From assembly GCA_964606385.1 (NCBI GenBank), contig CAZSFZ010000012.1, positions 1 to 63,030 on the forward strand: a stretch of DNA of 63,030 bases, given 5' to 3'. The notes beneath the pieces are model-generated. The model ran no database searches. It saw only the letters and a list, made by a program, of their open reading frames with translations, and was not told where the DNA came from. This DNA comes from an uncultured bacterium (GTDB taxonomy: Bacteria; Omnitrophota; Omnitrophia; Omnitrophales; Aquincolibacteriaceae). Both the position numbers and the translations under genes were made by a program. Positions 1 through 63,030 of this stretch are shown here, in pieces (the stretch's first letter is position 1; every line of letters starts with the position of its first letter).

Positions 1-3000
1 TCGCCTTCGCAGTGATATCCGCTGTCGTGGTGCCTTGCTGCGAGATCGTGTAATTCCCAAGGTCGGCGCCACCCAGCACATTCGTCAAAATCACCGTCTT
101 GCCATTGGCAGCATTCTTATCACTGAACAATCCGCTTGAGGAAACCGTCAGATCATCTCCGGCAACTTTGCCTGCAAATGTCGCCACCGCGGTTGAAATG
201 GCCACATCTCTCGTGGAATCGTAAACCTTATCCGAAGCCGTGATCCCGGAGAGAGTGATCGGTTTTGCGGTGATGTTCGCGCTCGCTACCGCACTCGTGG
301 AAGCAAGCGAGTAATTGGCGGCATCCGTTCCGCTGATCGAAAGACCGCTGACACTCACGACTTTCCCTGCACCTACATTCTTGTCGGCAAACGCCGCTGC
401 CGTATAAGCATCCGTCAGCACATCCCCCGCAACACGGTTATCGGAAAGAATAACACTGCCAGCCGTGGTCCCGTCATAGGTCTTGTTCACACCCGCCGCC
501 GTAACCGTCAGAGTCCTGGGAGTGATCGTGAGGTCTCCCGCTACGAACGTGATGTCATAACCCTGCTGGGTGGAATAAAGCCCGCCGGGCGTGAGACCTC
601 CGATATAAGTGCCGACATTCTTGCTGGGGCTGGTGAAGCTTACCGTGCCCAAAAGCTCCGAAGAAGGAGTCGCCGAATACGTCACCCCGTTCCCCTGAAC
701 AGTCGTAGAACCGTTATAAGTATTCGTGGCCGAATTCGCCGTCACCGTCAATGGTGTCAGGAAGGTTTTTAAAAGAGGGGCTGTGTATCCTTCATAGATC
801 TTCCAGGTGCTTGTGAGATCCCAGCCGGAGAACGTGGAGGATTGCTTCATCTCGGCATCCGTCACAAGAATCCCGAATCCGTTATTGTGAGCTGCATCCG
901 TAAAGTATGAGCCTGTGATGCTTGCATCTCCGGCCCCTACCAATCCACCAGCTCCAGTACCGCCAACGAGAACAACACTTCCCGTCGCATAGGAATTAAT
1001 GACGAGACCTGGACCGCTTTGTTGCCAGACTGCCCCGATAAGACCTCCGACATGAGATTCGCCCGTTGCATTCCCCGTAGCATACGAAGATTGAACTGTG
1101 CCGTCGCTTCTTCCGACCAAACCTCCGATTCCATCGCGTCCGATCACGTTAGCGCTACTGCCTGATCTTTCAATGGTCCCCACGCCCGCCCCTACGAGTC
1201 CTCCCACATGACCCGATGCACTCTCAACCGCTCCGCTAGAAAAAACATTCGAAATGCTCCCCATGTTATGACCAACGAGCGCCCCAACATTGTACTCGGA
1301 ACCAGTCACAGAAACTTCACTCAGAACAACATTTCTAATATCACCGCCCGAGGAGACCCTTGCAAAGAGCCCAAGATCGCCTTCATTCCTATCAATCGAG
1401 AGATGATCGATGGAGAAAAATGCCCCATCAAAAGAACCATCAAATTCACCATACACATCCCCCACGGGATCAAACCCTGCTCCGGCGTTCCAGTTGGCGG
1501 TATCCGAGGCATCGATGTCATTCCCGAGGGTATAGGAAGCATCAAGATCGAGTGCCATCATCTGAAGTTGAGTGACATTGGTGATGGTATCGGTCCACTC
1601 CATCTGCAGATGCGGCAGCCCCGCCATGATCCAGACGCCATTATGTCCGGCGCTCACTCCGTCCGCATCAAAATCCCAGCCTGAAAATGTCGCCTGCTGC
1701 ATCATCTCGGCTGTGGTCTTTGGCGTTCCGCGACCGTCATTGTTACTCATGCCCGAGGTCTCGGAATCGTAGTAAGAGTTCGATACGGAACCGGCGCCAT
1801 ATGGGTTGTTCATAAGCCCGCTGAAACCGCCGACATTGCCTCCGGTCGCCGTCACATGCCCGGTGGAATAGCTATGAGACGCCGAACTGCCGCCCGCCAG
1901 CATACCCGCAAAACCGCCCACTTCGTCCGCGCCGATCACATTTCCAGTCGCATAGCTGTTGTCGACGGTAATGTGGTACCAGATATTTCCCACCAATCCG
2001 CCGACGCGGTTTCCAGTTGCCGTTACATTGCCGGTCGCATAAGAATTATAAATATGTCTGCCCCATCCATCCGAACCGCCGGCAAGACCGCCCACCTGAA
2101 ACCGTCCGCTTACAGCGTTTGTCGAATAACAATTTTCCAGATCCACGTGATAGACCCAACCGATCAGACCACCAACACTGTCCCGTCCCGAAACAGTCCC
2201 GCCCGTCGAATAGGCATTTGAGACCAGTTTGCCGTCGTAATTCGCCTGGCCAGCAAGGAATCCGACAGCATCCTGGCCGGTGATACTTCCCCCGATAAAA
2301 CCGACATTCGAGATATCTTTATCACCGTTCGTTGCACCAAAAAGCCCGACATAGTTCTCGGTGGGCCTGTTGATATAAAGATCCGAGATGGTGTGATGGT
2401 TCCCGATGAAATCACCAAAAAACATGTTTGTACCATCCCCCACCGGATCAAATCCGGCGCCGGCATTCCAATAGGCTGTTGCACTGGCATCGATGTCGTT
2501 GGCGAGTGTGTAAGATGCGGAAAGATTCAGGTTCATGTTCTGGAGTTGGAGGAGTGTCGTGATATTCTGCGACCATTCCCAATCGAGGTGAGGGTATTGA
2601 CTCCCTTCAAAAGCAACCCACCCACCATTTCCATCACCAAACGTCCATCCAGAGTAAGTAGCCTGCTGCTTCATTTGCGTAGTGGTCTGGGGGGTCCCGC
2701 GATTATCATTATCGTTTTGACCGCTTGTATTTTGATCATAAAAAGAATTGGTCACGGGTGAGCCATAACCATTTCTCCCTATCAGCCCTCCAAAGTTGCT
2801 GGTTCCTGCCACGTTCCCGGTAGAATAAGTATTTAAGATCGTCCCTCCGTTATACTCACCCACAAGCCCCCCCACCACGCTAGAACCCGTGACGTTGCCG
2901 GATGCGTAGCTATTAGCAATCGTTCCTGGGCCGGTACTCGAATGATACCCTACTAAACCGCCCACAGCTTGTGTCCCAACAACCGCTCCTGTTGCATAAG

Positions 3001-6395: not shown

Positions 6396-7247
6396 TTACC
6401 GTGCCCTGAGATAACGCCGGACCAGGGCGATCAGAAAAAGAGGCGTCAGCGTGATTCCCAGGAGCGCCTCGACCGACGCCACACCCCGGATCCAACCCAA
6501 GGGCACATAGTCGCCGTACCCCATGGTCGCATAGGTCATGACACTCAGGTAGAACGATTCAAAAAGATCGGCTTTCTCAATAAGCCCTCCGGTCAGGACC
6601 AAACCGGACACATGGTAGCACAAAGCGCTCAGGATGATGACCCCGCAAGCGACCCCGAGCACGCGAAAAGGCATTTCCCCGTAGCCCCAAACCGCCCGAT
6701 CCATGGAGCCGAAAAACCAATGGATAAAGGCCGCCATCCGTTCTCTCCATGAAACCGGCTCAAGGCCGACCGCGTGCTTCGCCGGTTCTCGCTTCCGGGT
6801 AAAGGTCTTCCACAGGCGGGCCAGTCGGGCGTCCTGGGCGCGGCAGTAGCAATAAGAAAATTTCGGGAAATCCCCCTCTTTTTCGTAAAGAAGGGCGGCT
6901 TCCCTAAAAAGCGATTCGGCGTAAGCGGAATCCTTTGCCTCGACCGCCTGAAGCGCGGCCAACTCGTTGCGGGTCGCTGCATTACGAAGCGGCTGCCAGC
7001 CGGTATGGATATTCCAACAGGTCGCGGCGGAGGAAAAACAGACCGCGGCTTTGAGAGGTTCTCCCGCTTCCTGAAAAAGCCGGGCCGCCTTGTCGAAAGT
7101 CTGGAACGCCTGATCGATCTTGCCGTCGGCGCGAAGTTTGTAGGCCTCCCGTTCGGCGGCAACGGCCTGCTCGGCCTTGGGCCCGGCAGGAGGCACGTTG
7201 AAATGAGGCGTTTTGGGATCCATAGGAAGCATTCTACTCTCTTTCAA
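6396..7247 (-). CDS. 2-TM potassium-channel-domain protein with N-terminal TPR/SNAP-like helical region
   Basis: Pore helix/filter SFYLSVMTYATMGYGDYVP between two TM helices; helical repeats N-terminally. Start uncertain (7247, or a later Met). Confidence 0.8.
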   Translation of the reverse strand: MKESRMLPMDPKTPHFNVPPAGPKAEQAVAAEREAYKLRADGKIDQAFQTFDKAARLFQEAGEPLKAAVCFSSAATCWNIHTGWQPLRNAATRNELAALQAVEAKDSAYAESLFREAALLYEKEGDFPKFSYCYCRAQDARLARLWKTFTRKREPAKHAVGLEPVSWRERMAAFIHWFFGSMDRAVWGYGEMPFRVLGVACGVIILSALCYHVSGLVLTGGLIEKADLFESFYLSVMTYATMGYGDYVPLGWIRGVASVEALLGITLTPLFLIALVRRYLRAR

Positions 7248-50289: not shown

Positions 50290-50363
50290 AAAAAACCGCC
50301 ACTGACTTTTTCGTCAGATGGCGGCCCGACCATCGCTTGCTCTCCGGAAATTTTCCCGGACCC
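50290..50363 (-). promoter_or_regulatory. Probable nhaA-I/DUF1646-like Na+/Li+ riboswitch with overlapping intrinsic terminator
   Basis: Minus strand GGGT-CCGG(hairpin)CCGG-AGA-GCAAGC-GAT-GGTCGGGCCGCC, whose CCGCC is also the 5' arm of terminator CCGCCATCTGAC-GAAAAA-GTCAGTGGCGG-TTTTTT. Confidence 0.62.
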
Positions 50364-50562
50364 GTTTCAGATTTAGAGTCGCATTTTGTCCTGTTCCCTC
50401 AAGAAGGTCAAGCGTTATCGGCAGCTTGAGTGCTCAGCTGACCTGGGGGTCAGGCTCGTCTCAATTCCCAAGATGGCTCCCCCGGATGGGCTACAGCAAA
50501 CTGATTGTAAACTCGGCCCCGCACGCAGGAAGGCATCGGTTTCATACTGATTAAGGGTAAAA

Positions 50563-50603: not shown

Positions 50604-50615
50604 AATGGCTCCCCC
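50604..50615. repeat. att core, left junction
   Basis: AATGGCTCCCCC, antisense of GGGGGAGCCA(TT). Confidence 0.88.
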
Positions 50616-50711
50616 TGTTAGACGCATTTAAGAACCCTACTCCTGACTTCAAACTGATAATAAACGCATTAGGAGAGCAGTTCAAAAACACTTTCGTCCT
50701 TGCTGCTTAGC

Positions 50712-52523
50712 CTACTTGAACTTGGAAAGTTCCGTATAAACTTCCATGAAAAGGGGCGAACCCGTAAAGGACAAAGGGGACACTGGCCCAAAAAACATAA
50801 ATGGGAATTTACCGTTACTGCTAGGATCGATAAATGATTTGTATAATTGAATCGCTGAAGGATTGTTTACGAGCTCGGAAACCTTTTTCAATTCTGACCC
50901 TGAGGTGAGCCCATACCCGAATCCGAAAATGCGCATTTGTTTCAAAATTTCATCATTCAAAGATTCCAATGTTTGCGTGATAAACATGTAACCAATGCCA
51001 TATTTCCTTGTAGTTCTTACGGAATTGATGATTTCCCTTGTAAGTTCTTTTATTCTTTCGTCGAGCGCTCCCTCAGAGATAAATTTGTGCGCTTCATCCA
51101 TAACGATCAGGCAATTAGCCCGTTCGTTCTTGGCGTATAAATCAGCGCCAACTTCCACGACCTTGCACTCGATCACTTTTATAAACAATGCCTGCACATT
51201 CTCGTTCTCAATTTCACCTGCTTTTGCGCCACTAACATCCAATACGATAAAATTTCCCTTCTCTTTGACGATTTTATGCACTAAATCGTCCACAGACAGC
51301 TTAGTTTGTCCGGAAGCCTTTGTTTTCTTGAAGAAGTCTAAAGCGGCGTTCCATTTTTTGAGAACCGATGTCTGAGTAGCTAAATTAGCTAGTACCTCTT
51401 GGCATCGTCCGAGAAGTCGGTTTCTTGTTGCAGTCGTTCCATAAATCGCTTCAACGTATACCGTGAACGTTTTTCCTTGCCTCGTTTCATCTTGGCTTAA
51501 AGTAACAAAACGAGTAAGAAGATCCCTAAGCAATGCCGTGCTATCTGTAATGCTGTTCAGATTAAAGGAAGGGTTATTGGCTCTCCCGAAGAGATAATCC
51601 ACCACGGCATCGCGCGCCGCCTCTATTTTATCTTCCGTGTACATTGGCCGAAAAGCATCTTCAATGAAGCCAAGATTGGTAAGCAACTGTCCGAGAATTT
51701 CAAATTCTTTTCCCGGTAAATAGATGTCCGAAAGGATTTCGTACTTTGCGTACTTCATTCCCGCGGCAGTAATTCGAGTTTCCAGCTTTGTACCACCCGG
51801 AAGTAATTCTTGGTCGGAATAAAACTGCCTCTGGGGATCAAGAACAAGAATGCTCATGCTTTTCTTGTTTTTTGCGTAGCCCAAAAGAGTATAAGCAGCT
51901 GTTACGGTTTTGCCTGAACCGGTTTTACCAAAAATTCCTATATGATAAGCATCGCCAGCCCCCGCTTCCCGTATTGCTGGATCAGTTTTCCCAAAATGCT
52001 TGAACCAAAACGGTAAATCCACATCGGTGCCATAAACCTTCCCCATATAGGTAATCTCAGTTTCATGGGGCTTCATTAATGAAGTCATTACTTCATTAGT
52101 CATCTTACCAACTTTTTCTCCCGTAGAGGGGGAGGTTCCAAGGATGTATCCGATGGGCGCCGCATCATTCAGAGCATAACAGGCTTGGACACTGATGGTA
52201 GCAACACGGTTATCTGCCGTTCCGCTCAGATGCGGAAGTTTTCCATGCCGCTTAATTACGCCCTTAAAAGACGGATCTTCATGCCAACGGTTCTGTGTCT
52301 CAATTGAGATAATTTGCCCGATAACAAGAATGGGCCAGCCGTCTTCTTCTACAATGACATGAACCATTTGCCCCAATGCTCTTTGAGCCTTACTCTTTTC
52401 AGAAATATCTATCGTAATGTCAAGAGTAGTACTGGGCGAACCCGTGATTCCTAGGGTTGCGGTGCCCTCTTTCTTGATAATGTCGAGAAGCTCTTGGGAA
52501 ACAGTTTTCCGGGATTGTTCCAT
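50712..52523 (-). CDS. herA: HerA-family ATPase/helicase (HAS barrel + DUF87-type core)
   Basis: HIGIFGKTGSGKT, LIVMDEAHKF, RKYGIGYMFITQ; N-terminal GQMVHV..ILVIGQI. Confidence 0.88.
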   Translation of the reverse strand: MEQSRKTVSQELLDIIKKEGTATLGITGSPSTTLDITIDISEKSKAQRALGQMVHVIVEEDGWPILVIGQIISIETQNRWHEDPSFKGVIKRHGKLPHLSGTADNRVATISVQACYALNDAAPIGYILGTSPSTGEKVGKMTNEVMTSLMKPHETEITYMGKVYGTDVDLPFWFKHFGKTDPAIREAGAGDAYHIGIFGKTGSGKTVTAAYTLLGYAKNKKSMSILVLDPQRQFYSDQELLPGGTKLETRITAAGMKYAKYEILSDIYLPGKEFEILGQLLTNLGFIEDAFRPMYTEDKIEAARDAVVDYLFGRANNPSFNLNSITDSTALLRDLLTRFVTLSQDETRQGKTFTVYVEAIYGTTATRNRLLGRCQEVLANLATQTSVLKKWNAALDFFKKTKASGQTKLSVDDLVHKIVKEKGNFIVLDVSGAKAGEIENENVQALFIKVIECKVVEVGADLYAKNERANCLIVMDEAHKFISEGALDERIKELTREIINSVRTTRKYGIGYMFITQTLESLNDEILKQMRIFGFGYGLTSGSELKKVSELVNNPSAIQLYKSFIDPSSNGKFPFMFFGPVSPLSFTGSPLFMEVYTELSKFK

Positions 52524-52528
52524 GTGCC

Positions 52529-53737
52529 TTAAGTCCTATAGTTAAACAACAAGTTGAATTTACCCTTATCGATTTTTAAATCTTCTGAGAGCTTAATGGC
52601 TTCTTGAATAGCGAACATACCACCAGAGATACTTTTCGCCATGAGGTCTACTAAAAATTGAGGATAGGGTTCTCGGATTTCCGGGAAAACAATCTGCTTT
52701 TTAAGACTAAGCAAGCATGTCTCAAGCCTTTTTTGATCCAATGCGAGAGCTTTTTTCATTTCGATACGATAGGCTGGGCCATCTTGGTAAGGTTTAAAAT
52801 AAGTAAAATAAATCTCGGATTCTTTTTTCTTCAACGTAAAAACATCCTTTGTCCTTAGCGGATTAATTGCTTTCTTTAAAGCTTCATTAAGATCGTTCTT
52901 TTCTGGAATATTAAGATTGCAACGAATATGAAGATCGTCCCAAATTCGCTCTCTTTCATCCTGACTTTGACCCACTGGCAAAGGCTTTAGGTATTCATCT
53001 TCCGCCAAAGAAAGTGAAAAAAAAGTTCTATCATCCACCTTCACAGCGTGCTGAGCCAAGAAAGCATCCAAGACATCTCGTGAAGAGCTGTATTTGGCCA
53101 AAGCAATGATCTTTTCGTCATTAAAGGCCGCCTTGATAATTTCCGGTATATCGGGAATGATTTTCTCATAAGTTTCTTTTAAAAACTCACGGAGCGCATT
53201 CGCGTATTCCTGCGCAGAAGTGTTCTCATCTTCATTAGCGGATAGCATGCTGTTAATTTTTAAAAGTGGCGTAAAATGCGTTCCATCCATAATCCTAATT
53301 TCATGGCTTGCTCCAGCAAGAACGCTTAACTCCATCAGAAACATGATGCCTTGGCCCAAGCGAGCATTCGCTTCGTTGTGCGAAAGTGCCGTTTGCCACT
53401 GGTAATACTGATTTTTACCTTCTTCCCAACCCTTGTCTGTGTCCTCAGTTAAACCTTCCACCCCAACAGCAACGGCAAGTAAAAGATCGCTTCCTGTCAT
53501 TTTTTCAATAATTATACTTCCGTCAACAGCAACCAAAGAGTTAGAGAAAATATCGGTTTTTAGAATAGCGATTTTCCCAGTGTCCCGCAGTTCTCTAATT
53601 GCAGCCTGAATGGGTTCATCTTGGATATCAAACATTTTGTTCATTTTCTCAACTGTAACTGGAACATTATCCAAGATCTTGGCTAATAACTCGTCCGGAA
53701 GATATGCGTAGTTCCGTTGTTTTACCTCTTCGCTCAT
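52529..53737 (-). CDS. nurA: NurA-family nuclease
   Basis: LVAVDGS, IRIMDGT, ALAKYS, YPQFLVDLMAKS; ATG 53737 overlaps the upstream TGA. Confidence 0.82.
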   Translation of the reverse strand: MSEEVKQRNYAYLPDELLAKILDNVPVTVEKMNKMFDIQDEPIQAAIRELRDTGKIAILKTDIFSNSLVAVDGSIIIEKMTGSDLLLAVAVGVEGLTEDTDKGWEEGKNQYYQWQTALSHNEANARLGQGIMFLMELSVLAGASHEIRIMDGTHFTPLLKINSMLSANEDENTSAQEYANALREFLKETYEKIIPDIPEIIKAAFNDEKIIALAKYSSSRDVLDAFLAQHAVKVDDRTFFSLSLAEDEYLKPLPVGQSQDERERIWDDLHIRCNLNIPEKNDLNEALKKAINPLRTKDVFTLKKKESEIYFTYFKPYQDGPAYRIEMKKALALDQKRLETCLLSLKKQIVFPEIREPYPQFLVDLMAKSISGGMFAIQEAIKLSEDLKIDKGKFNLLFNYRT

Positions 53738-54891
53738 AAAGTTTCCTGAATTATATTTTTGCACTTACGAAGGTTGTAAAAGATTTGCCGTTTAAAAGAT
53801 TCCGCGTTAAAACGTTGGAAGTTTTCATTTTTTTGTATGCGTGGTAAAGCCCACCGGTTTTTCCAAAAGTCTGATAGCTCTTCAATGGTGCGATGGTGCC
53901 ACAAGGGCCTCACGTCATTTTGAATTACGTTCTTCAAATTTTTAGCGAAAGGGAAAATATAAAGGGCGCGTTTAACTCCGTGATCAACTCCGTTTGTAAT
54001 TCCTAATTTTTCTAATGCTTTGTCAATTAATCGCATTTTGCGAGAAGGCCCATTCCCAAAGCCCCGGTCTAGCTGACCATCTTCTTGTTCTAAAAAGGAA
54101 ACCATTTGCTCATAGAGCGTATTGGGAATGTGAAAGGAACCGCTGCCGTTTGTATAGCCAATAAATTCTGCGATTGGAAACCCCGCATATTTTAATCGAT
54201 TGTAAACACTGCTTTTGCCATAAGCCCCAGTAGTTGTTATAAACAGAAGCCGGGAAGGTAGGTTTCTTTCTTTGATAATAGTTTTTTGGTTCTTATATTT
54301 TTTTTCAAATGTTTCTCTTACGATCTCTGCTGTCATCAAGGAAGCAACAAGTTTTCCCCCGAGGATTGAATTATATGGAGGCAGTGCGCCTAAACGCTGA
54401 GCGCTCAAGGATTGATTTACCCAATAATCTCTTTCCTTATGCGTAATGCCTAAATGTTGATCCCGAACGCTCCAGCTTAAAATCGGGCTTTGAAGACCAA
54501 TTAAACCTATGGGCGCATTGTGGTAATCATCCCAAACAATGAATCGCATTTGGCGGCCGTAGGCCGGATCATAAGGCAAACTCCACCAGACTAAATTCCA
54601 CCAACGAAATAGATCTGCAGTACCTGTTTTTGAGTCTACTAATATTAGCCGGGGTTTTATATTTGCTACATTCAAATCACGGCCATTGAGAATTAGATTC
54701 TTATTTTTTTTTAGATATTCGCGGATAAATTCTTCATGAGAGACTATACGTTCTGCCTTGGCGAGGGAATGAACTGCTCTTCTTGATTGGCGGGTATCTT
54801 TTTTTAAAGTAAATCCGTTTTTCGCAAGCGAATAGCCTTGCTTTTCAACGAGAAAGCGTAATTTCTTTTTTAGACTTGCAGCAGCTATCAT
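53734..54891 (-). CDS. DUF4338 / Druantia DruA-like protein
   Basis: WSLPYDPAYGRQMRFIVWD, IGLIGLQSP, RD..LG, RLGALPPYNSILGGKLVA, LFITTTGAYGKSSVYNRL, GYTNGSGSFH. Confidence 0.8.
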   Translation of the reverse strand: MIAAASLKKKLRFLVEKQGYSLAKNGFTLKKDTRQSRRAVHSLAKAERIVSHEEFIREYLKKNKNLILNGRDLNVANIKPRLILVDSKTGTADLFRWWNLVWWSLPYDPAYGRQMRFIVWDDYHNAPIGLIGLQSPILSWSVRDQHLGITHKERDYWVNQSLSAQRLGALPPYNSILGGKLVASLMTAEIVRETFEKKYKNQKTIIKERNLPSRLLFITTTGAYGKSSVYNRLKYAGFPIAEFIGYTNGSGSFHIPNTLYEQMVSFLEQEDGQLDRGFGNGPSRKMRLIDKALEKLGITNGVDHGVKRALYIFPFAKNLKNVIQNDVRPLWHHRTIEELSDFWKNRWALPRIQKNENFQRFNAESFKRQIFYNLRKCKNIIQETL

Positions 54892-55006
54892 TTATTACCT
54901 AACATTTGAATCTGTAATTAGATAGCGAATTATACTACTATTATTGGTGCAGACCCATGATTTTCCAATCCATGGGTTCTTTTTCAAAGAGGAAAATATC
55001 AATAGA

Positions 55007-55978
55007 TCAACCCTTGTGCGGAACCGCTTTTTGAAACAAAATTCGGTTGTTCCGGGTTGCCCAAAAGGCTTGCTGACGCTGACCATCGGTAAAGCAAGCG
55101 TAGTGCTCAGGCGAAGATAAAACTACCGAATAGGCGCTCCGAGTTAACTGTTCCGCCTGCAGGACGATCCACCAATAGGACTTCCAGATCGTATCCCCAT
55201 CCCCCAAATCCTTCAGATGGTCCAAGCGAGACTTGAGAAAGAAAATATTGTTAATGATCGCAGCCGCCTTACTCGGCGACAAGAGCTTGGGCTGGTCCTG
55301 AGGCCAGAAACACTTGATCCGGGATAGAAAATATTCTTTCTGCCGCCCTTCCGGTGAGCAGATAAGCGCCTCCAGTGCCAGAATGAAGCAAGTCAACCGG
55401 TGCCGAATGTCGTATTCTTGCAACCCACGACAAAAAAGATCCACCCCTTCCATGAAACGCTTGCTTCGATCACAAGCCTCCTTACCGCAATGCAATGGGA
55501 TCAGCTTAGCTGCGAAATCGGTCCACCGGTAAAAGATCTCTCGGGTCAAAGGACGATCATTCTTGCCGGAGCCTTCTGTGTCGAACCAGCCAGACTCTTT
55601 AAAAGACTCACTAAGCTGCCAAATCCCGCTCTCAAGGCGGCTATACAAGAAATAAGCCTCTAGGTGACACCCAAAAGAAAAGGCGATCTTAAGGGCCTGC
55701 CAGTAGTCAGAAGGCCAAGAAAGCGCCTTTCCATCATCAGGGATATCCTTTTCAACCGTTACGACCCATTGGCGCGTATGGCAAAAAGAATCAACATGCT
55801 GCTCCCATCCCCGTGTTCCCAGCCGGGCCTTCCACTCTTCGCGCGCGAAGGGCGCCATGAAAGCATCTATGTCTTTAACAAAATCGATCGACACACCCGG
55901 GGCAACGTCAAAATGGTCTGCTCCGGTCTCGTTTGGCGCGTCAGTCTGTATAATTAAAAGTCCGATCGCTTTATTCAT
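55007..55978 (-). CDS. HEPN (ApeA/Apea-like C-terminal) domain protein
   Basis: RLTCFILALEALI ... IFFLKSRLDH; the HEPN Rx4H position reads KSRLDH. Confidence 0.5.
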   Translation of the reverse strand: MNKAIGLLIIQTDAPNETGADHFDVAPGVSIDFVKDIDAFMAPFAREEWKARLGTRGWEQHVDSFCHTRQWVVTVEKDIPDDGKALSWPSDYWQALKIAFSFGCHLEAYFLYSRLESGIWQLSESFKESGWFDTEGSGKNDRPLTREIFYRWTDFAAKLIPLHCGKEACDRSKRFMEGVDLFCRGLQEYDIRHRLTCFILALEALICSPEGRQKEYFLSRIKCFWPQDQPKLLSPSKAAAIINNIFFLKSRLDHLKDLGDGDTIWKSYWWIVLQAEQLTRSAYSVVLSSPEHYACFTDGQRQQAFWATRNNRILFQKAVPHKG

Positions 55979-56008
55979 GCGGGCGCTCTCGAATTAACTG
56001 GGGGAGGA

Positions 56009-56587
56009 TTATATAATTTTCAGCTTACTAAGTATCAACAAAAGAAGATAGATGCTGCCAAGAATAAGGGCGATTTTAATAAGGGCGTCCTTTGAAGACG
56101 CAACATCCTTGATGAATTTGAGCAGCTTCAGGGTCGTAGGCTTGAGTGATTCGTCGATCGCAGAGCTGAGCGATTTCAGTATCACTGGCCGTTCACCGAG
56201 ATAACGAATAAAAATAAATAGCGCAACAAGAATAAATACTGCTAAAACCATTCGAGGAGAAATCTCCAAAACTTCAAATATTTTGCGAGCTTTTTCCCTT
56301 CTGCCTCGGTAGGCTTCCAAAGACATATTATTGCGTTTAGCGTTCAGAGAATCCTTGGCTATGTCTTCTTTGGCGAAAACGTCATATATGTTTTCGTTTT
56401 GTCGAATCGCAGGCGGGGTTACCGCTGCCTCAGACCCTTCAATCGCGGGTTGAAGACCAAAGAAATGTTTAGCAATGCGTTCTTCCCCAAAGCTGGAGGA
56501 AATAATTAGCAGGCAAAAAAAGACAGCCCCGAGCGTCCATAAAACGTAAAAGAATTTTTTGTGCTTGGTTAGGAAGGGATCGGTCAT
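56009..56587 (-). CDS. Hypothetical membrane protein
   Basis: Three hydrophobic segments; start placed at MTDPFL, overlapping the upstream stop. Confidence 0.55.
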   Translation of the reverse strand: MTDPFLTKHKKFFYVLWTLGAVFFCLLIISSSFGEERIAKHFFGLQPAIEGSEAAVTPPAIRQNENIYDVFAKEDIAKDSLNAKRNNMSLEAYRGRREKARKIFEVLEISPRMVLAVFILVALFIFIRYLGERPVILKSLSSAIDESLKPTTLKLLKFIKDVASSKDALIKIALILGSIYLLLLILSKLKII

Positions 56588-57057
56588 ACGCCCCTTGTCA
56601 AAATCGCCTGCTCTCCAAAAGTCTGTTTTACCCTTTTGGAGAATTTGAAATACAAAAACCAAACAGAGGCTGTAAACACGGTCATAATCCTGCCGATAAT
56701 GAAATTGCTTAATGCACCATTTGAGGGGATAGTCTTAGTAAATACTAAAAAGAAACAAGCTGTCAGGGAAAGCGTGCAAGCAATCACGCCGAAAAGGAGT
56801 ACCCGCTTCGCTTGGCACGCCGCAGTGGGTTTAAGTTTGAACAATCGATAGGCAACTATGAGCTGGAAAGCGCCATACCCCATAATCGCTACCGCATCTA
56901 GCATGAGATAGGTCATCATGACTGACCATGATTTTGAAAGCACCAAATCGTTGAGCAAAGATCCGCTGCGAAAAAAATTCAATATCCCGCCTAAACCACA
57001 TACAAAGACAAAAAAAGCAAGCCATCCACCAATATGCGTATAACGTACTTCGTTCAT
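56584..57057 (-). CDS. DUF2569-like membrane protein
   Basis: IGGWL at N-terminus; W..YF..SKRVK.TF at C-terminus. Confidence 0.75.
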   Translation of the reverse strand: MNEVRYTHIGGWLAFFVFVCGLGGILNFFRSGSLLNDLVLSKSWSVMMTYLMLDAVAIMGYGAFQLIVAYRLFKLKPTAACQAKRVLLFGVIACTLSLTACFFLVFTKTIPSNGALSNFIIGRIMTVFTASVWFLYFKFSKRVKQTFGEQAILTRGV

Positions 57058-57089
57058 GACGTCCTCCTTCGCCTCGGATGCGTATGGCG

Positions 57090-57569
57090 CTACTGAAATA
57101 TCTTTTTATTTGGATCTTGGATATTTGATTCGGTGTAGATGTAATTGCGCATAGACTTGAAAATCTCTTGCGGCCAGCTCTTCTCGGTCATATCGCCCCA
57201 GAAACCAAGATCTTTTGACCCTTGAACAAGGATCTTTACGGAGCTGCCATCCGGCTCCTCTTTGATGTAAACGCCTGCGACAATGTTCCAATCGTATTTC
57301 GTCATTCCGTGTTCCCCGATCGCAACGGCTTCATCGTAGTTGGCTCTCTTGATTGTAAAACCGGCATCGGAAAGCCCAGATTTGGCAGCAAGGTAGGCGG
57401 TGCGCTTATCGACACCCTTCAGAAAAAAAACTTCTTCATACTTCGACCAACCGGTTCGGCCCTCATTGGCCGGATTAAAATTGACGTTTCGCGCAGATTG
57501 GGGCATGGAATTGATTGAGGTACAGCCGGTGAGCAAAATAAGCGAAAGTAAAAAAAGCGTGCTTTTCAT
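57090..57569 (-). CDS. Lipoprotein of unknown function
   Basis: Lipobox LLTGC. Confidence 0.75.
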   Translation of the reverse strand: MKSTLFLLSLILLTGCTSINSMPQSARNVNFNPANEGRTGWSKYEEVFFLKGVDKRTAYLAAKSGLSDAGFTIKRANYDEAVAIGEHGMTKYDWNIVAGVYIKEEPDGSSVKILVQGSKDLGFWGDMTEKSWPQEIFKSMRNYIYTESNIQDPNKKIFQ

Positions 57570-57580
57570 GTAGGAATTTT

Positions 57581-57640
57581 ACCATCTATGGATGGTTTTT
57601 GGAAGAGCTGCAAGATCCCATAATACCATCCATGGATGGG
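57581..57640. promoter_or_regulatory. Paired palindromic operators in the lipoprotein/XRE divergent promoter
   Basis: ACCATC-TATG-GATGGT (57581-57596) and ACCATC-CATG-GATGGG (57625-57640; covers the XRE ATG). Confidence 0.65.
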
Positions 57641-57853
57641 TACATTTGTCGCAAGCTGGGAAAGCGGATAAGAGAACTAAGGGATAAGCATGACCTTACT
57701 CAAGAAGAGCTGGCTGCACGTGCAGATATTAGCTTGAAGTACCTTCAAAATCTTGAAGGGAAAAATCCAAAGAAAGCCACCGTCGTTACTTTAAGCAAGC
57801 TTGGAAAAGGTTTCGGTCTTCCTCTTTGGAAGTTTCTAAAATTCCCTCAGTAA
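57632..57853 (+). CDS. XRE-family HTH regulator (C-protein-like)
   Basis: LGKRIRELR..HDLTQEELAARADISLKYLQNLE. Confidence 0.9.
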   Translation: MDGYICRKLGKRIRELRDKHDLTQEELAARADISLKYLQNLEGKNPKKATVVTLSKLGKGFGLPLWKFLKFPQ

Positions 57854-58160
57854 GCAGGTTAATTCTTTCCTCAAGATCCATTGGGCTAACCGTAGGTTCC
57901 GAATTTGCTAGAGATCCCATCCTTATTTCACTCTCGTTGTACTGAGGCGGTTTCCCCCAACCCCGATCCAGCAATGCGAGAGATGCCTGAATACGTGCCG
58001 CTTTAGTCGATTTCGGATCGTTCATGATCTCGACCAACGTGTTGATAGCCGCTTCTGTGTGCTCCCTCGCCTTATCCCTGATCGTTATGGCTACCTTAGG
58101 ACGTCCATTCGGATTACCCGATTGTCCCGGTTTAAACATTCCTGCGTGTCTATTCTCCAT
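57786..58160 (-). CDS. DUF5681-domain protein (terminase small-subunit-like N-terminus)
   Basis: FKPGQSGNPNGRPK; LLDRGWGKP; GGAGG RBS before ATG 58160. Confidence 0.75.
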   Translation of the reverse strand: MENRHAGMFKPGQSGNPNGRPKVAITIRDKAREHTEAAINTLVEIMNDPKSTKAARIQASLALLDRGWGKPPQYNESEIRMGSLANSEPTVSPMDLEERINLLTEGILETSKEEDRNLFQACLK

Positions 58161-58228
58161 TGTCCCCACCTCCATGGATATTCTATACTAGTACATTAAA
58201 TTCTTGGATAAGAAAGATGTGGTGATTA

Positions 58229-58864
58229 GTGGAAAAAGGCAATGAGAGATTCGACAGAGAACAGGCTGAGAGAAAACAGGCTTGGGACATACTCCAAAAC
58301 ATCCCTGAATTTATAGCAGACCGTAAAAAAGCCAGTGAATTTAATAAAATCAAAGACCAAAACAAAATCAAACAACTGAAAAAGAAATGGGGCTTTTATC
58401 CTCTAGAAGATATTTTAGAATTCACTGACGCCTTTTCAAAATACTCGGTCATAGCGAATCGGTGGGGAAAAGCAGTCGATTTCCATGGCGTAGATATGTT
58501 TTCATTAAACGCTTCTGAGCAATTGGTTGCCCCCGAAGGAAGTCCATGCAAGGGCAAATCCCTCCTTCATAAAATCGATGTCACCATCGATATAACAAGA
58601 TCGGACAGCGCTATTTTGGATGAATTAAGAACAGGAATTGATAGCATACGACGCATTTTTAAAACAAAAATAACGCCAAACAAAAAGCATGACCATTTGG
58701 AATTCTTGATAGGTTTATTGATCGGCATCGGTCTAACAGACGCTGAAATACACGAGCGGCTCACGCCACGCAAGCTATTAAAGCTTGCCTATGATCATGG
58801 GCAGCGAAAATCCCACCGAGAAAAAATTCAAGAACGGTTGAAAACTAGGCGGAAAAAAGTTTAA
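58229..58864 (+). CDS. Hypothetical protein
   Basis: 211-aa open frame; no recognised motif. Confidence 0.5.
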   Translation: MEKGNERFDREQAERKQAWDILQNIPEFIADRKKASEFNKIKDQNKIKQLKKKWGFYPLEDILEFTDAFSKYSVIANRWGKAVDFHGVDMFSLNASEQLVAPEGSPCKGKSLLHKIDVTIDITRSDSAILDELRTGIDSIRRIFKTKITPNKKHDHLEFLIGLLIGIGLTDAEIHERLTPRKLLKLAYDHGQRKSHREKIQERLKTRRKKV

Positions 58865-58914
58865 TTTCTTTCCGCTCCACAGCAGCATTCCTTGCCATTT
58901 AAGATTGTCGCATT

Positions 58915-59244
58915 ATGGAAAACGCGGCAATCAACTTATCAGATATTCAGATCATTCCAATCAAGCCTCGCGATGGCCTTTTGGCCTTCGTATCTTTCCT
59001 ACTTAATAGCCAGTTTTTCTGCGGGAATATAGCTATTCACTCCCGCCCTGATGGCAATCTCAGACTTGTTTATCCGCAAAAACTTCTTCCGAATGGAAAA
59101 ACCATTAACTGTTTTCATCCCGTGGATCAGCAGGTAGCAAATACAGTTTTAGAACAGGTTTCAGATGCTTATCTGCACCTTATTTCAAAATGTGGCCAAA
59201 ATGCGACTATTTGTGAGGATCGAGATGAGACCCTTCGAAAATAA
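58915..59244 (+). CDS. SpoVG-like nucleic-acid-binding protein
   Basis: IQIIPI..GLLAFVSF.L...F....IAI....DG.L.LVYP......FHPV pattern. Confidence 0.7.
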   Translation: MENAAINLSDIQIIPIKPRDGLLAFVSFLLNSQFFCGNIAIHSRPDGNLRLVYPQKLLPNGKTINCFHPVDQQVANTVLEQVSDAYLHLISKCGQNATICEDRDETLRK

Positions 59245-61195
59245 TCCCCCATTGAAACCGCAGCACACCACGAACAGCGCAAATATTCCTGAGGAATTGA
59301 AAAAGCTCTCTCAATGGGTCGGCTTCAATTTTGAGTGGGATGCAAAAAGAAAGAAGTGGAAAAAAGTTCCATATCAAACCAATGGAAGACGGGCCAGCAC
59401 AACAAATCCGACGCATTGGAGTTCCTACAAAGAAATTGAATTTTACGCATGCTCTCTTGAAGCTGCCGATGGAATCGGTTTTGTATTTACATCAAAAGAT
59501 CCTTATTGCGGGATTGATTTAGACCATTGCGTTGATCCTACAACTAAAGAAATTTCATCATGGGCACTTAAATGGATCGAGCTATTTTCATTTTCAGGCG
59601 CTTACATGGAATATTCGCCATCTGGCACGGGGATCAAAATTTTCACAAAAGCAAAACTTCCATTCCATGGCCGAAAAAACGGCGACATAGAAATATACGA
59701 TCAGGCGCGCTATTTCACGGTTACTGGGAACGTATACGGATTATGTCAAAAAGAAATCCCAAACCAGCAAGCTGCTGTGGACCAACTCCTCGATGAGGTT
59801 TTCAGTAACCAGCCTAAAACAACCACTAATAAAATCGCGCCACTGAGCGGCAATGAATTAACGAGCGAAGAACTCAACTTGCTCATCCAAAAAGCTAAAA
59901 AAGCAGAAAATGGTGAAAAATTTTTAAAACTTTTTAACGGTGATTATGAGGATTATCACAAATCACAATCGGAGGCTGATGCCTCACTGTGTACCATGTT
60001 CGCCTTTTACACGGACTGCAATGAAATGGCGATTGATCAGTTGTTTCGAGAATCACATTTATACCGTGAAAAATGGGAGCGACCTGATTATCGGACCGGG
60101 ACAATCAGAAATGCTATCGATTTCTACAAAAAATCAAGAAACAAGCTGTTCGCTGACAGCATTGTTTCGCCAGACAAATCCCACCTCGAAAATGTTGAGC
60201 CTTTACCTCTTATCCACATAGTAGATGTAGAAGAAAAGGACTTAGAATTTCTAGTCGAAGGTTTGTGGGTTCTTGACAGTGTTGGCTTTATTTCTGCTCA
60301 GCCCAAATCTGGAAAAACATGGCTTTCGTTGGAAATTGGGATTAGCGTTGCTTCAGGCACAAACGCCTTCGGCCATTTTCCATCCAAGCGAGGAAAGGTT
60401 ATCGCGTTTAACGCGGAAGATGATCCCGCACGAGGTACGCGCCAACGCATAGCCGGTCTTTGCGCATCCAAAAAGCTGGCTCTCAAAGACATCGATTTTC
60501 ATCTTATCAATGTTCCTTCACTACTAATCGACGATACGGAGACACAAAAGCGGATTGAAAAAACTGTTAGTGATCAAAAACCCGCCCTTATCATTCTCGA
60601 TCCTCTCTTTAACTTGCATTCCAAGGATGAAGACAAATCCAAAGAATTATCAGAAATATTACATTTCTTACGTCTACTAAATCGCACTTACAAGTGTTCG
60701 ATTCTGCTTGTTTGCCATGATAAAAAACCATCTGGCAACAAGAATCAATCTACGCGACGAGAATCTCAAACGCGAGGATCAAATTCTTTGGAAGGTTGGG
60801 CCGACAATCTTATTTTTGTTGATGATGAAGACAAAACTAACGCGATTTCAAGAGTATACATACGCCACCGAAACGCACCGCTGACAGAGCCTTTTTACTT
60901 CCAGCTCCTTACGGAAACCCAAGATAAGAAAATTAAAGTAGCCGCTCTCCATAAAATGGATTCACAAGGTCTATTGTTTCAAAAAGATCTTAAGCTCCAA
61001 CAAATTATTACAACTGCTATGAGCGGAAAAGGCGCCATGCGAAGAGATGACCTCCGCAGCCAATTAAAGATTAGAAAAAACGATTTCGATGTAGCTTTTA
61101 ACGCAATGATTTGCTCCGGAGAAATCATTGAACTTGTTGATGAAAAAGATAAAAGAAAAAAGCGGTATCAATACCGGAGTTCAACGGGAACTTGA
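59225..61195 (+). CDS. Primase-polymerase / RepA-type (AAA_25) helicase fusion
   Basis: KKVPY, GIGFVF, GIDLDHC, EYSPSGTGI, EIYD..RYFTVTG; SQSEAD..L, LYREKW; AQPKSGKT, IILDPL, RGSNSL. Confidence 0.88.
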   Translation: MRPFENNPPLKPQHTTNSANIPEELKKLSQWVGFNFEWDAKRKKWKKVPYQTNGRRASTTNPTHWSSYKEIEFYACSLEAADGIGFVFTSKDPYCGIDLDHCVDPTTKEISSWALKWIELFSFSGAYMEYSPSGTGIKIFTKAKLPFHGRKNGDIEIYDQARYFTVTGNVYGLCQKEIPNQQAAVDQLLDEVFSNQPKTTTNKIAPLSGNELTSEELNLLIQKAKKAENGEKFLKLFNGDYEDYHKSQSEADASLCTMFAFYTDCNEMAIDQLFRESHLYREKWERPDYRTGTIRNAIDFYKKSRNKLFADSIVSPDKSHLENVEPLPLIHIVDVEEKDLEFLVEGLWVLDSVGFISAQPKSGKTWLSLEIGISVASGTNAFGHFPSKRGKVIAFNAEDDPARGTRQRIAGLCASKKLALKDIDFHLINVPSLLIDDTETQKRIEKTVSDQKPALIILDPLFNLHSKDEDKSKELSEILHFLRLLNRTYKCSILLVCHDKKPSGNKNQSTRRESQTRGSNSLEGWADNLIFVDDEDKTNAISRVYIRHRNAPLTEPFYFQLLTETQDKKIKVAALHKMDSQGLLFQKDLKLQQIITTAMSGKGAMRRDDLRSQLKIRKNDFDVAFNAMICSGEIIELVDEKDKRKKRYQYRSSTGT

Positions 61196-61212
61196 TACCG
61201 GAAGTGCATTAT

Positions 61213-61245
61213 TTCCAGTACCCTCCCTTATAAAGGGTACTGGAA
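61213..61245. repeat. Perfect 12-bp inverted repeat downstream of the primase-helicase
   Basis: TTCCAGTACCCT-9 nt-AGGGTACTGGAA. Confidence 0.7.
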
Positions 61246-61322
61246 TACTATATAGAGGTAATCTCTTGAGAGAGGCTCTTAAAAAGCAATTGGGCTTTTG
61301 TTACGAGGAATGGGGCGCCTCT

Positions 61323-61454
61323 GTGAATTCGCAGGAATTAGACACCTCAGCCAATTCCTTATTGTCCTTTGTGTCCCTCCTCATGGAAACTGATCAAAAG
61401 AACGGATTCCAAGTCCTAAAATCATCCTTTAATCCTAAAGATCATAATGAATGA
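61323..61454 (+). CDS. Small hypothetical protein upstream of the recombinase
   Basis: GTG start; MNSQELDTSANSLLSFVSLLMETDQKNG..., the 3' part of ORF-track 61128..61454. Confidence 0.35.
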   Translation: MNSQELDTSANSLLSFVSLLMETDQKNGFQVLKSSFNPKDHNE

Positions 61455-61523
61455 CGAGCACCACTTATTTGCATAAAATAGATACTGCTAACAGAGTGAT
61501 AACAGTAAAGAAGCGGAGAAAAT

Positions 61524-63030
61524 GTGAAGGCTATCATCCTTGCCAGAGTTTCCACAGAAGAGCAAATGGTGGAAGGGCAATCCATCCCTGCCCAATTAGC
61601 CAAAGCCCGCCAATACGCTTCGCGCAAAAAACTTGATGTTAAAAGTGAGTACCAGTTTGATGAATCTTCCTTAAAAGATAAGCGCACGAAGTTCGAGCAA
61701 GTCACCGAGGAAATCCAGAAGGCTGCTGAGCCCATAGCGCTTATTGTGGAAACTATAGATCGACTGCAACGGAGCTTTAAAGAATCTGTCTCATTGGATA
61801 ATTTTCGAAAAGAAGGTCGCTTAGAAATTCATTTTATTCGCGAAAATCTTGTTATCCATAAAAGCTCCAATAGTTCCGAACTGACCCGATGGGATATCGG
61901 CGTTCTCTTTGCGCGAAATTTCGTCCTTCAAATCAGTGATAATGTTAAAAGAACCATTGAGCATAAGCTTAAGAATGGCGAGTATCCTTCGCGCGCACCT
62001 TATGGCTATTTAAACATCACCAATGAAGATGGCAAGAAATGGATAGCGCCTGATCCTTTAGCCTCCAAGATGGTAGCCAAAATTTATGAATGGTATGGCT
62101 GCGAATCATTTTCGATGGAAGATATCCGCGCGAAGTTAAAAAACGAATTTGGTCTTACTTTTAGCAAGGGTAAAATAGATTTTATTCTGAAAACGCCATT
62201 CTACTATGGTGAAATGCTCTTTGATGGGAAGTTGTATCCGCACAAGTACCAATCTATTATTTCCCGCCAAATGTGGGATAACGTGCAAAGCGTTAAGGCC
62301 GGCTTCCATAAGAAGCCATGCAAATTTGGTGGATTGCCTTATTTATACCGTGGCCTCTTAAGATGCAGCCATGATGGTCATTCTTTTACCCCGGAAAAGA
62401 AACGCAAGAAGAACGGGCGCGAATACATTTATTACCATTGCACCCAATATAGCGGGAACCACAATACGGCTTGGATCCGAGAAGAGGACATTACGCGGCA
62501 ACTTCAAGAGGTCATTTCGAATATTTCGATACCTGACGCCATTGCTGCCGAAATAAGCACTGCCTTGAAAGAATCGCATGAAGGCAAGAAAGAGTATTAC
62601 AACGAGGTTTATGAGGGCCTGCAGGCCGAATATAAGCGTTATGAGATGCGCTTAGAGAAGATATATGAGCATTTCTTGGATAACCAGATTTCGGAAGCAG
62701 AATACGCAAAGTACAGGAAACAGTACCGTACAAAGCAGGAAGATATACAGAGCAAACTAAACAATCTTCAACGCGCTGATGACAATTACTACGTTACAGC
62801 TACTTATGTTTTGAAGCTTGTCCAAAAAGCAGCTGATCTCTTTGAAAGTTCTGAACCTATTGTAAAACGGCAAATTGTGAAACTGTTACTTCAGAACTGT
62901 GAAGTAAAAGATGCAACTCTAGTCCCCACAATAAGAAGCCCCTTCCACATGTTCGTGAAAGGGGCTTCTCGTCTAGAATGGCTCCCCCGCCTGGGATCGA
63001 ACCAGGGACACTGCGGTTACGGTCTGACTT
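61524..63030 (+). CDS. Large serine recombinase (resolvase + recombinase + Zn ribbon + coiled coil); reads through att into antisense tRNA, no stop in window
   Basis: Absent from ORF track. GTG 61524 after GGAG; AIILARVSTEEQ, SIPAQ, DRLQR, APYGY, LLRCSHDG...YYHC; in frame with EWLPRLGSNQG at 62976 onward. Confidence 0.93.
   Translation, partial: MKAIILARVSTEEQMVEGQSIPAQLAKARQYASRKKLDVKSEYQFDESSLKDKRTKFEQVTEEIQKAAEPIALIVETIDRLQRSFKESVSLDNFRKEGRLEIHFIRENLVIHKSSNSSELTRWDIGVLFARNFVLQISDNVKRTIEHKLKNGEYPSRAPYGYLNITNEDGKKWIAPDPLASKMVAKIYEWYGCESFSMEDIRAKLKNEFGLTFSKGKIDFILKTPFYYGEMLFDGKLYPHKYQSIISRQMWDNVQSVKAGFHKKPCKFGGLPYLYRGLLRCSHDGHSFTPEKKRKKNGREYIYYHCTQYSGNHNTAWIREEDITRQLQEVISNISIPDAIAAEISTALKESHEGKKEYYNEVYEGLQAEYKRYEMRLEKIYEHFLDNQISEAEYAKYRKQYRTKQEDIQSKLNNLQRADDNYYVTATYVLKLVQKAADLFESSEPIVKRQIVKLLLQNCEVKDATLVPTIRSPFHMFVKGASRLEWLPRLGSNQGHCGYGLT
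62977..62988. repeat. att core, right junction
   Basis: AATGGCTCCCCC. Confidence 0.88.
62979..63019 (-). tRNA. trnN: 3' part (positions 36-76) of tRNA-Asn(GUU), interrupted at 35/36
   Basis: TAA-CCGCA-GTGTC-CCTGG-TTCGATC-CCAGG-CGGGGGA-G-CCA, exactly 41 nt; T arm perfect; G73 and acceptor end are Asn-like. The anticodon's first two bases are not visible, so identity is inferred. Confidence 0.75.

Follow-up and report, generated by a model that had tools for sequence, protein, structure and literature searches.

The 3' Half of a Split tRNA-Asn Gene at a Contig End

The stretch of DNA analyzed here, hereafter called the window, is the whole of 63,030 nucleotides (nt) from contig CAZSFZ010000012.1 (GenBank assembly GCA_964606385.1) of an uncultured bacterium belonging to the Omnitrophota, and it ends inside a tRNA-Asn gene that appears to be interrupted by a group I intron. 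Read on the minus strand, its last 52 nt (62979..63030) are AAGTCAGACCG|TAACCGCAGTGTCCCTGGTTCGATCCCAGGCGGGGGAGCCA, followed by a hairpin with a T-rich tail. Two features are distinguished there:

62979..63019, minus strand: 3' exon of tRNA-Asn(GUU), positions 36-76 (exact single match; identity with intact genes)
63020..63030, minus strand: predicted 3'-terminal 11 nt of a group I intron, AAGTCAGACCG (identity with the intron 3' ends of relatives)

The 41-nt exon is made up of U36, A37, and A38, the 3' strand of the anticodon stem, a 5-nt variable loop, the T arm (CCTGG/TTCGATC/CCAGG), the 3' acceptor strand, the discriminator G, and an encoded CCA. From TAA to CCA it occurs once in the window and in 0 of 100 shuffles, no second copy of the tRNA half was found in the window at up to three mismatches, and it is identical to positions 36-76 of the intact 76-nt tRNA-Asn(gtt) genes called by ARAGORN in loci L002, L004, L008, L009, and L012. 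The 11 nt upstream of it could form only two of the five anticodon-stem pairs with CCGCA and would place a C at position 33. They end with a G (63020, minus strand) directly 5' of U36, as do the introns of all relatives, in which this residue is the terminal (omega) G; the AAG within the 11 nt corresponds to the residues with which the 3' strand of P9 ends. The break between anticodon positions 35 and 36 described in the initial annotation of the window is therefore confirmed by the exact exon, the failure of the upstream 11 nt to form the anticodon stem, and the terminal G, and the reading of the last 52 nt as the 3' half of a tRNA-Asn gene preceded by the probable final 11 nt of a group I intron is supported.

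The same annotation had predicted that tRNA scanners would miss this gene, and they did: ARAGORN called no tRNA anywhere in the window, and an Rfam E-value scan of 62850..63030 (181 nt) gave neither a tRNA nor an intron match. When positions 1..600 of the window were checked for a circular wrap-around, the 5' exon and the intron were absent and unrelated coding sequence was found. Neither the intron end nor the 3' exon had an exact match among viral contigs. Because the window contains just 11 nt of the intron, the intron core, P1, and the 5' exon described below are those of its relatives.

Split and Intact tRNA-Asn Genes in Other Omnitrophota

A genome scan with the 3' exon, using one genome per species, yielded 13 loci, all of them in metagenome-assembled genomes (MAGs) of Candidatus Omnitrophota; the gene was intact in five and split in eight. 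All eight split loci carry the conserved sequence ...GGCAAAGAGAAAGTCCGACTCTTCAGGCAACTGAAGTCAGACCG|TAACC, in which the final 11 nt of GGCAAAGAGAAAGTCCGACTCTTCAGGCAACTGAAGTCAGACCG are those of the window. Their downstream flanks differ, indicating that they are not one repeated locus. Twelve further loci were obtained from a metagenome scan with a junction-spanning query. Altogether, the intron 3' end of the window is shared exactly by more than 20 loci (L001, L003, L005-L007, L010, L011, L013-L025, and L033-L035).

The split gene was complete at every locus with enough upstream DNA (16/16), with 12 distinct introns of 218-631 nt. The 5' exon TCCCCTGTAGCTCAGCTGGTAGAGCATGCGGCTGT (TCCCCTG...GCGGCTGT) is identical in all 16 and lies 218-631 nt upstream of the 3' exon. 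It had been predicted to start with TCCCCCG, which is one base off, since all complete relatives with the 3' exon of the window have TCCCCTG, with a G.U pair. When the 5' exon of the relatives is joined in silico to the 3' exon of the window, the product is the exact intact gene, called tRNA-Asn(gtt) by ARAGORN; intron-less alleles with identical exons also exist. Judging from the 16 complete relatives, we infer that the window copy probably also has a full intron and a 5' exon, and we have little doubt that this locus is a minus-strand tRNA-Asn(GUU) gene split between U35 and U36 by a predicted self-splicing group I intron.

Several observations weigh against this reading. The window extends over only 11 nt of the intron and does not reach the core, P1, or the 5' exon. 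No same-strain locus extends across the junction, the nearest Logan contig (L027) stopping at the tRNA 3' end. In addition, in at least one MAG (CAYQTU01) an intact tRNA-Asn (L012) exists alongside an intron-bearing locus (L007), so an intact second tRNA-Asn may be present in the genome of the window as well. The 3' exon and intron tail could accordingly be a remnant whose 5' part was deleted or rearranged, or a chimeric contig end, that is, a pseudogene in a cell where another tRNA-Asn does the work; the MAG with both forms, the end of the window at this very point, and the several assemblies that break in or beside the gene (L007, L010, L024, and L027) would fit such a view. We nevertheless regard it as improbable, because the complete split gene is found in all relatives with enough upstream sequence, there is no decay in the 52 nt (0 mismatches), and a population in which ORF-bearing, ORF-less, and intron-less forms (ORF, open reading frame) are mixed would yield contig breaks of this kind.

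Independent assemblies break at the same gene: 11 nt of the intron remain in L007, as in the window, and 19 nt in L010 and L024, and L027 ends exactly at the 3' end of the tRNA. It is our speculation that these breaks reflect strain-level variation, both in the form of the intron and in the presence or absence of the genomic island described below.

Structure and Proposed Splicing of the Intron

The Rfam model Intron_gpI (RF00028; gathering score, 50 bits) matched L001, L003, L005, and L006 with 51.8-63.6 bits, and L028-L030 and L033-L035 with 68.1-87.4 bits. Relatives that share the exon and intron end of the window account for scores of 51.8-68.1 bits, and their matches run up to the end sequence found in the window; the score of 87.4 bits belongs to a distant tRNA-Asn intron of Aerophobetes with a different end.

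Helices P1-P9 were drawn by hand from the sequences of the relatives and counted on 12 distinct related sequences. P1 is GGCUGU/GCAGCC with a U35.G wobble at the splice site, and 100% of its cells pair. P10 is formed in most copies between UAAC of the 3' exon and GUUA beside the guide. The core helices are P3 (AGCAGG/CCUGCU), P4 (UCAGGG/UCCUGA), P5, P6/P6a, and P7 (GACU/AGUC). The P2 loop is GAAA, and P8 contains CCUAAG...UAUGG, which corresponds to the 11-nt tetraloop-receptor (GAAA-receptor) motif. P9 (CUUCAG/CUGAAG) is capped by a GCAA or GUAA loop and followed by UCAGACC and the terminal G.

In this structure, 94.7% of cells were paired, vs. 29-49% when the partners were slid by 1-3 columns. 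Fifteen pairs vary on both sides, including four of the seven P2 pairs and one P9 pair (CUUCAG/CUGAAG to CUUCGG/CCGAAG), compensatory changes occur in P2, P5, P6a, and P9, and the core of P1, P3, P4, and P7 is invariant among the 12 sequences. The covariation score was reached by 0 of 500 shuffles; with only 12 related sequences and a poor alignment inside P5 and P6a, these figures back the Rfam result rather than standing alone. The proposal in the initial annotation that the break is the 3' splice site of a group I intron is thus supported by the identical intron ends, the Rfam matches, P1 and P10, and the covariation in the relatives.

A conserved structured module of ~65-70 nt (...GGACA-stem-GUCAA-stem-CCGAAGC.GUCC-UUGCGCA.UGGGCGCAAGG) lies inside P5 in L001, L005, and L017, and in P6 in L013 (columns about 100-170 and 193-250 of alignment A1, which has 417 columns). 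Its occurrence in differing peripheral helices of otherwise similar introns looks as if it might be mobile between sites. L011 and L022 have a P8 extension of ~45 nt in place of this module.

A terminal G is required of the intron, and the base just before the 5' splice site forms the U.G pair of P1; the exon junctions are thereby fixed at CUGU|...G|UAA (35/36). ARAGORN in its intron mode (-i) sets the intron two bases earlier, calling all precursors (L003, L006, L001, L005, and L013) tRNA-Thr(cgt) with an intron from position 34, as though the gene were a tRNA-Thr(CGU) with its intervening sequence after position 33. We give this identity practically no credence, because the intron would then end in C and not in G, the P1 helix GGCUGU/GCAGCC with its U35.G pair would be ignored, and those alleles that lack the intron but have the same exons are tRNA-Asn(gtt). 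A Thr anticodon CGU was also rejected: the anticodon stem cannot form, position 33 would be C, and the intron would lack a terminal G. The U1-A72 pair and the discriminator G73 also fit Asn.

Exon identity and, in the relatives, the intron family, its structure, the covariation, and the ORF were observed directly, and the splicing steps are modeled on the established chemistry of group I introns. The whole split gene would be transcribed as a single pre-tRNA. The guide 5'-GUUA|GCAGCC-3' would pair with the 5'-exon end GGCUGU, with the U35.G wobble, to form P1, and also with the 3'-exon start UAAC to form P10. A free guanosine bound in P7 would attack after U35; the terminal G (63020) would then take the same P7 site, and the freed 5' exon would attack after it. 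CUGU would thereby be joined to UAA, restoring the anticodon loop CUGUUAA. The window copy presumably splices in this way as well.

Relation to Known Group I Introns of Bacterial tRNAs

Williams extended the four classical IC3 cases (Leu.3Ug, Arg.5Ug, fMet.2Ug, and Ile2.5Ug) to 21 tRNA/site classes, and that preprint lists the classes Asn.4Ug and Asp.4Ug, with Pam37.Asn.4Ug and Wba81.Asp.4Ug in its seed alignment (Williams, bioRxiv 10.1101/2020.01.27.920355). The statement in the initial annotation that insertions at 35/36 of tRNA-Asn and tRNA-Asp had been reported is right in substance. The Omnitrophota genes have CUGU|intron...G|UAA, i.e., an insertion after the fourth anticodon-loop nucleotide (35/36), a U at -1, and a terminal G, as defined for Asn.4Ug. 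The tRNA and the insertion site are thus already known, and the Omnitrophota intron joins a known class.

Isotype, insertion point, -1 U, and terminal G are the same in Pam37.Asn.4Ug as it appears in the seed alignment, and both guides contain UAGCAGCC. Pam37.Asn.4Ug differs by an additional hairpin, resembling P7.1/P7.2, that follows P7 and precedes the 3' strand of P3 and that the Omnitrophota introns sharing the 3' end of the window lack; the Aerophobetes intron L028 has the extra post-P7 hairpin, as Pam37.Asn.4Ug does. The classical IC3 introns (Azoarcus tRNA-Ile, cyanobacterial tRNA-Leu(UAA), and tRNA-fMet) share with the Omnitrophota introns a small size (218 nt for the shortest here), a location in the anticodon loop, and the layout P1-P2-P3-P4-P5-P6-P7-P3'-P8-P7'-P9 without P5abc or P7.1/7.2. 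The GAAA loop of P2, the 11-nt receptor motif of P8, and the GNRA loop of P9 are also common to both, and the core strings (...CAAUCCUGAGC..., GCAGAGACU, and AAGAGAAAGUCC) are closely alike. In contrast to the classical cases, the Omnitrophota introns lie in a different tRNA and at a different loop position, and some copies have extra modules in P5, P6, or P8. Visual inspection and pairwise alignment were used to assess the likeness to IC3: the architecture fits by eye, and global identities of 70-80% in alignments with the representatives of the preprint fail to separate the classes.

[quoted passage not shown] In the literature searched, we found no paper linking Omnitrophota with tRNA introns, which is weak evidence of absence. 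The suggestion that the host of this intron is non-reduced is not established: the host is an Omnitrophota bacterium, and the window is silent on genome size.

HNH Open Reading Frame and Presumed Intron Mobility

The introns of the relatives occur in a short form (218-319 nt) and a long form (543-631 nt). The long introns contain an ORF of 98-99 amino acids inside the P1 loop, with a Shine-Dalgarno-like AAGGGG upstream and a TAG stop codon that falls within the guide sequence GUUAGCAGCC. None of the six distinct long introns has a disrupted ORF, and synonymous codon differences exceed non-synonymous ones in every pairwise comparison. Its product matches the Pfam HNH family (PF01844) with 22.9 bits (cut-off, 21.4), and the motif CxxC...HH...N...CxxCH is conserved in 6/6. 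In most short introns the ORF region persists as a small hairpin, GAGCGU/ACGCUC, comprising its first 16 nt and final ~20 nt, which looks like a footprint of ORF loss.

Judging from its sequence, the intron is presumably a mobile element whose HNH endonuclease would cut intron-less tRNA-Asn DNA and so drive homing. Alleles without the intron, without the ORF, and with the ORF coexist and have the same exons, which fits a homing cycle, in which such alleles are expected side by side. The endonuclease of the Synechocystis tRNA-fMet intron, I-Ssp6803I, is reportedly of the PD-(D/E)XK type. A small endonuclease gene within a tRNA group I intron is thus common to both systems, whereas the Omnitrophota enzyme is predicted from its sequence to be of the HNH type (PF01844), and its ORF lies in the P1 loop.

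When the HNH ORF was used to search proteins, at least 955 clusters were obtained at E ≤ 1e-5, many of them with 70-90% identity, and the named matches were mostly from Omnitrophota. Three of these matches were examined further. In the Aerophobetes MAG GCA_021163905.1 (L028-L030, ~1462..2093), the 23S and 5S rRNA genes are directly followed by a tRNA-Asn split at 35/36. The HNH ORF of this tRNA-Asn is 77% identical to that of Omnitrophota, begins 2 nt into the intron, and extends into the ribozyme core; the ribozyme has the additional hairpin that separates P7 from the 3' strand of P3. In a second MAG, a diverged tRNA-Asn is split at 35/36 by an intron of 585 nt, and Logan contigs L033-L035 have the exons of the window with a 609-nt intron. 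The presence of one HNH family in two structurally different ribozymes at the same tRNA-Asn site suggests, as part of the rather unlikely extension considered below, that the endonuclease gene may move independently between introns. A serine recombinase fragment is found downstream of the Aerophobetes split tRNA-Asn also.

A Serine-Recombinase Island at the tRNA 3' End

On its 3' side, the tRNA-Asn gene adjoins a genomic island, of which the following features were recorded:

61524..63030, continuing beyond the window end, plus strand: large serine recombinase gene with a GTG start (Pfam Resolvase, Recombinase, and Zn_ribbon_recom)
62977..62988, no strand assigned: right copy of a 12-nt direct repeat, AATGGCTCCCCC, which is the tRNA 3' end GGGGGAGCCA plus TT in antisense (blastn-short)
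50604..50615, no strand assigned: left copy of the 12-nt direct repeat (blastn-short)
50473..50484, no strand assigned: third remnant, ATGGCTCCCCCG (blastn-short)
50616..62976, no strand assigned: 12.4-kb genomic island between the repeats (Pfam and composition)

The integration site of this 12.4-kb island is the extreme 3' terminus of the tRNA-Asn gene. The G+C content declines from ~56% to ~42% at 50.6 kb, and the genes left of the recombinase include those for a HerA-like ATPase, NurA, DruA, a primase-helicase (NrS-1 polymerase HBD and AAA_25/DnaB-like domains), a SpoVG-like protein, and a DUF5681 protein (Pfam). DruA, NurA, and the HerA-like ATPase are candidate defence genes. We propose the 12-nt direct repeat as the attachment core of the island. 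Read on the tRNA strand, the left repeat is followed by a hairpin flanked by T runs, resembling a native tRNA terminator. With two nested remnants of tRNA 3'-end sequence present, the site seems to have been used repeatedly.

Exact-protein look-ups gave 0 matches for three proteins of the window, and two further look-ups led to Logan contigs of the same island, L027, which ends at the tRNA 3' end, and L026, which runs in the opposite direction. L027 has the same recombinase gene (99.8% identity) with the same start. Sequencing runs SRR15237810 and SRR15237811 contain this island, likewise with 99.8% identity in the recombinase. A search with the recombinase protein gave no full-length same-strain copy, the best match being 83% identical.

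An integration event of this kind might also be thought to have caused the break itself, the half tRNA being a displaced fragment or an attachment site and the 35/36 break an element junction. A low-G+C island with a large serine recombinase does adjoin the gene, short copies of the tRNA 3' end stand at the far side of the island, and serine recombinases lie downstream of tRNA-Asn in many related loci. The repeats, however, span just the last 10-12 nt of the tRNA (GGGGGAGCCA, 62977..62988), 30 nt from the break; the copies of the tRNA in the window are only 12 nt long (at 50473 and 50604), and no repeat in the window starts from position 36. In addition, the island is located 3' of the gene rather than 5' of it, the 11 nt past the break are an intron end beyond which the 16 complete loci have a matching 5' exon, and the intron is present where no recombinase was detected beside the tRNA (e.g., L003, L011, and L013). 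The displaced-fragment alternative raised in the initial annotation is therefore not supported, and we consider it very improbable beside an intron at 35/36 with a separate island at the 3' end.

The recombinase gene converges on the tRNA gene and runs antisense across its entire 3' exon. Judging from the homologue in L006, its stop codon would lie 11 nt past the window, within the intron (...GLTSVA*). Joining the island ends gives a candidate attP, ...CGTCTAGAATGGCTCCCCCTGTTAGACG..., with the dyad CGTCTA-N16-TAGACG, and also an alternative C-terminus of the recombinase, EWLPLLDAFKNPTPDF..., which resembles that of homologue P0006, EWLPQLDEFRNHF.... Many recombinase homologues (set P0001-P0044) end with WLP(R/G/S)xxSN(L/Q/H)G..., which is the tRNA 3' end translated in antisense. 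It seems that the crossover lies within the last codons of the recombinase gene and that the host tRNA provides the C-terminus and the stop codon. Because the gene is read antisense through the tRNA, the stop codon comes from the anticodon loop where the tRNA-Asn is intron-less (...GHCG*, P0004) and from P9 of the intron where it is intron-bearing (...GHCGYGLTSVA*, L006). If this is true, the intron status changes the C-terminus of the recombinase and could affect excision or integration. A three-way interaction of intron, HNH gene, and serine-recombinase island at one tRNA gene, with the HNH gene moving independently and the intron status altering the recombinase, is a rather unlikely extension of these observations.

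At the chromosomal edge of the island, an Rfam nhaA-I RNA match (50316..50363, minus strand; 37.8 bits vs. the gathering score of 37) lies upstream of an ORF of 111 amino acids and two SPFH/Band 7 genes. A c-di-AMP riboswitch (RF00379, 69 bits) is present at 6653..6801 (plus strand) of the related Omnitrophota contig L005.

Implications for Omnitrophota Genomes

The related loci show that group I introns at 35/36 of tRNA-Asn are common in Omnitrophota. Default ARAGORN and the Rfam tRNA model miss the split gene, and tRNA-Asn will appear to be absent from the genome of the window and from many other Omnitrophota genomes. Where the intron mode of ARAGORN is used, its naming of tRNA-Thr(cgt) is a likely source of misannotation. 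Completeness checks and codon-usage inferences for uncultivated Omnitrophota are distorted by the missed tRNA-Asn. What is known of the mechanism of group I introns is unchanged by this locus. It adds to the bacterial tRNA group I introns a well-populated family with ORF-bearing, ORF-less, and intron-less forms, in which one gene hosts both an intron and an integration hot spot for a serine-recombinase island.

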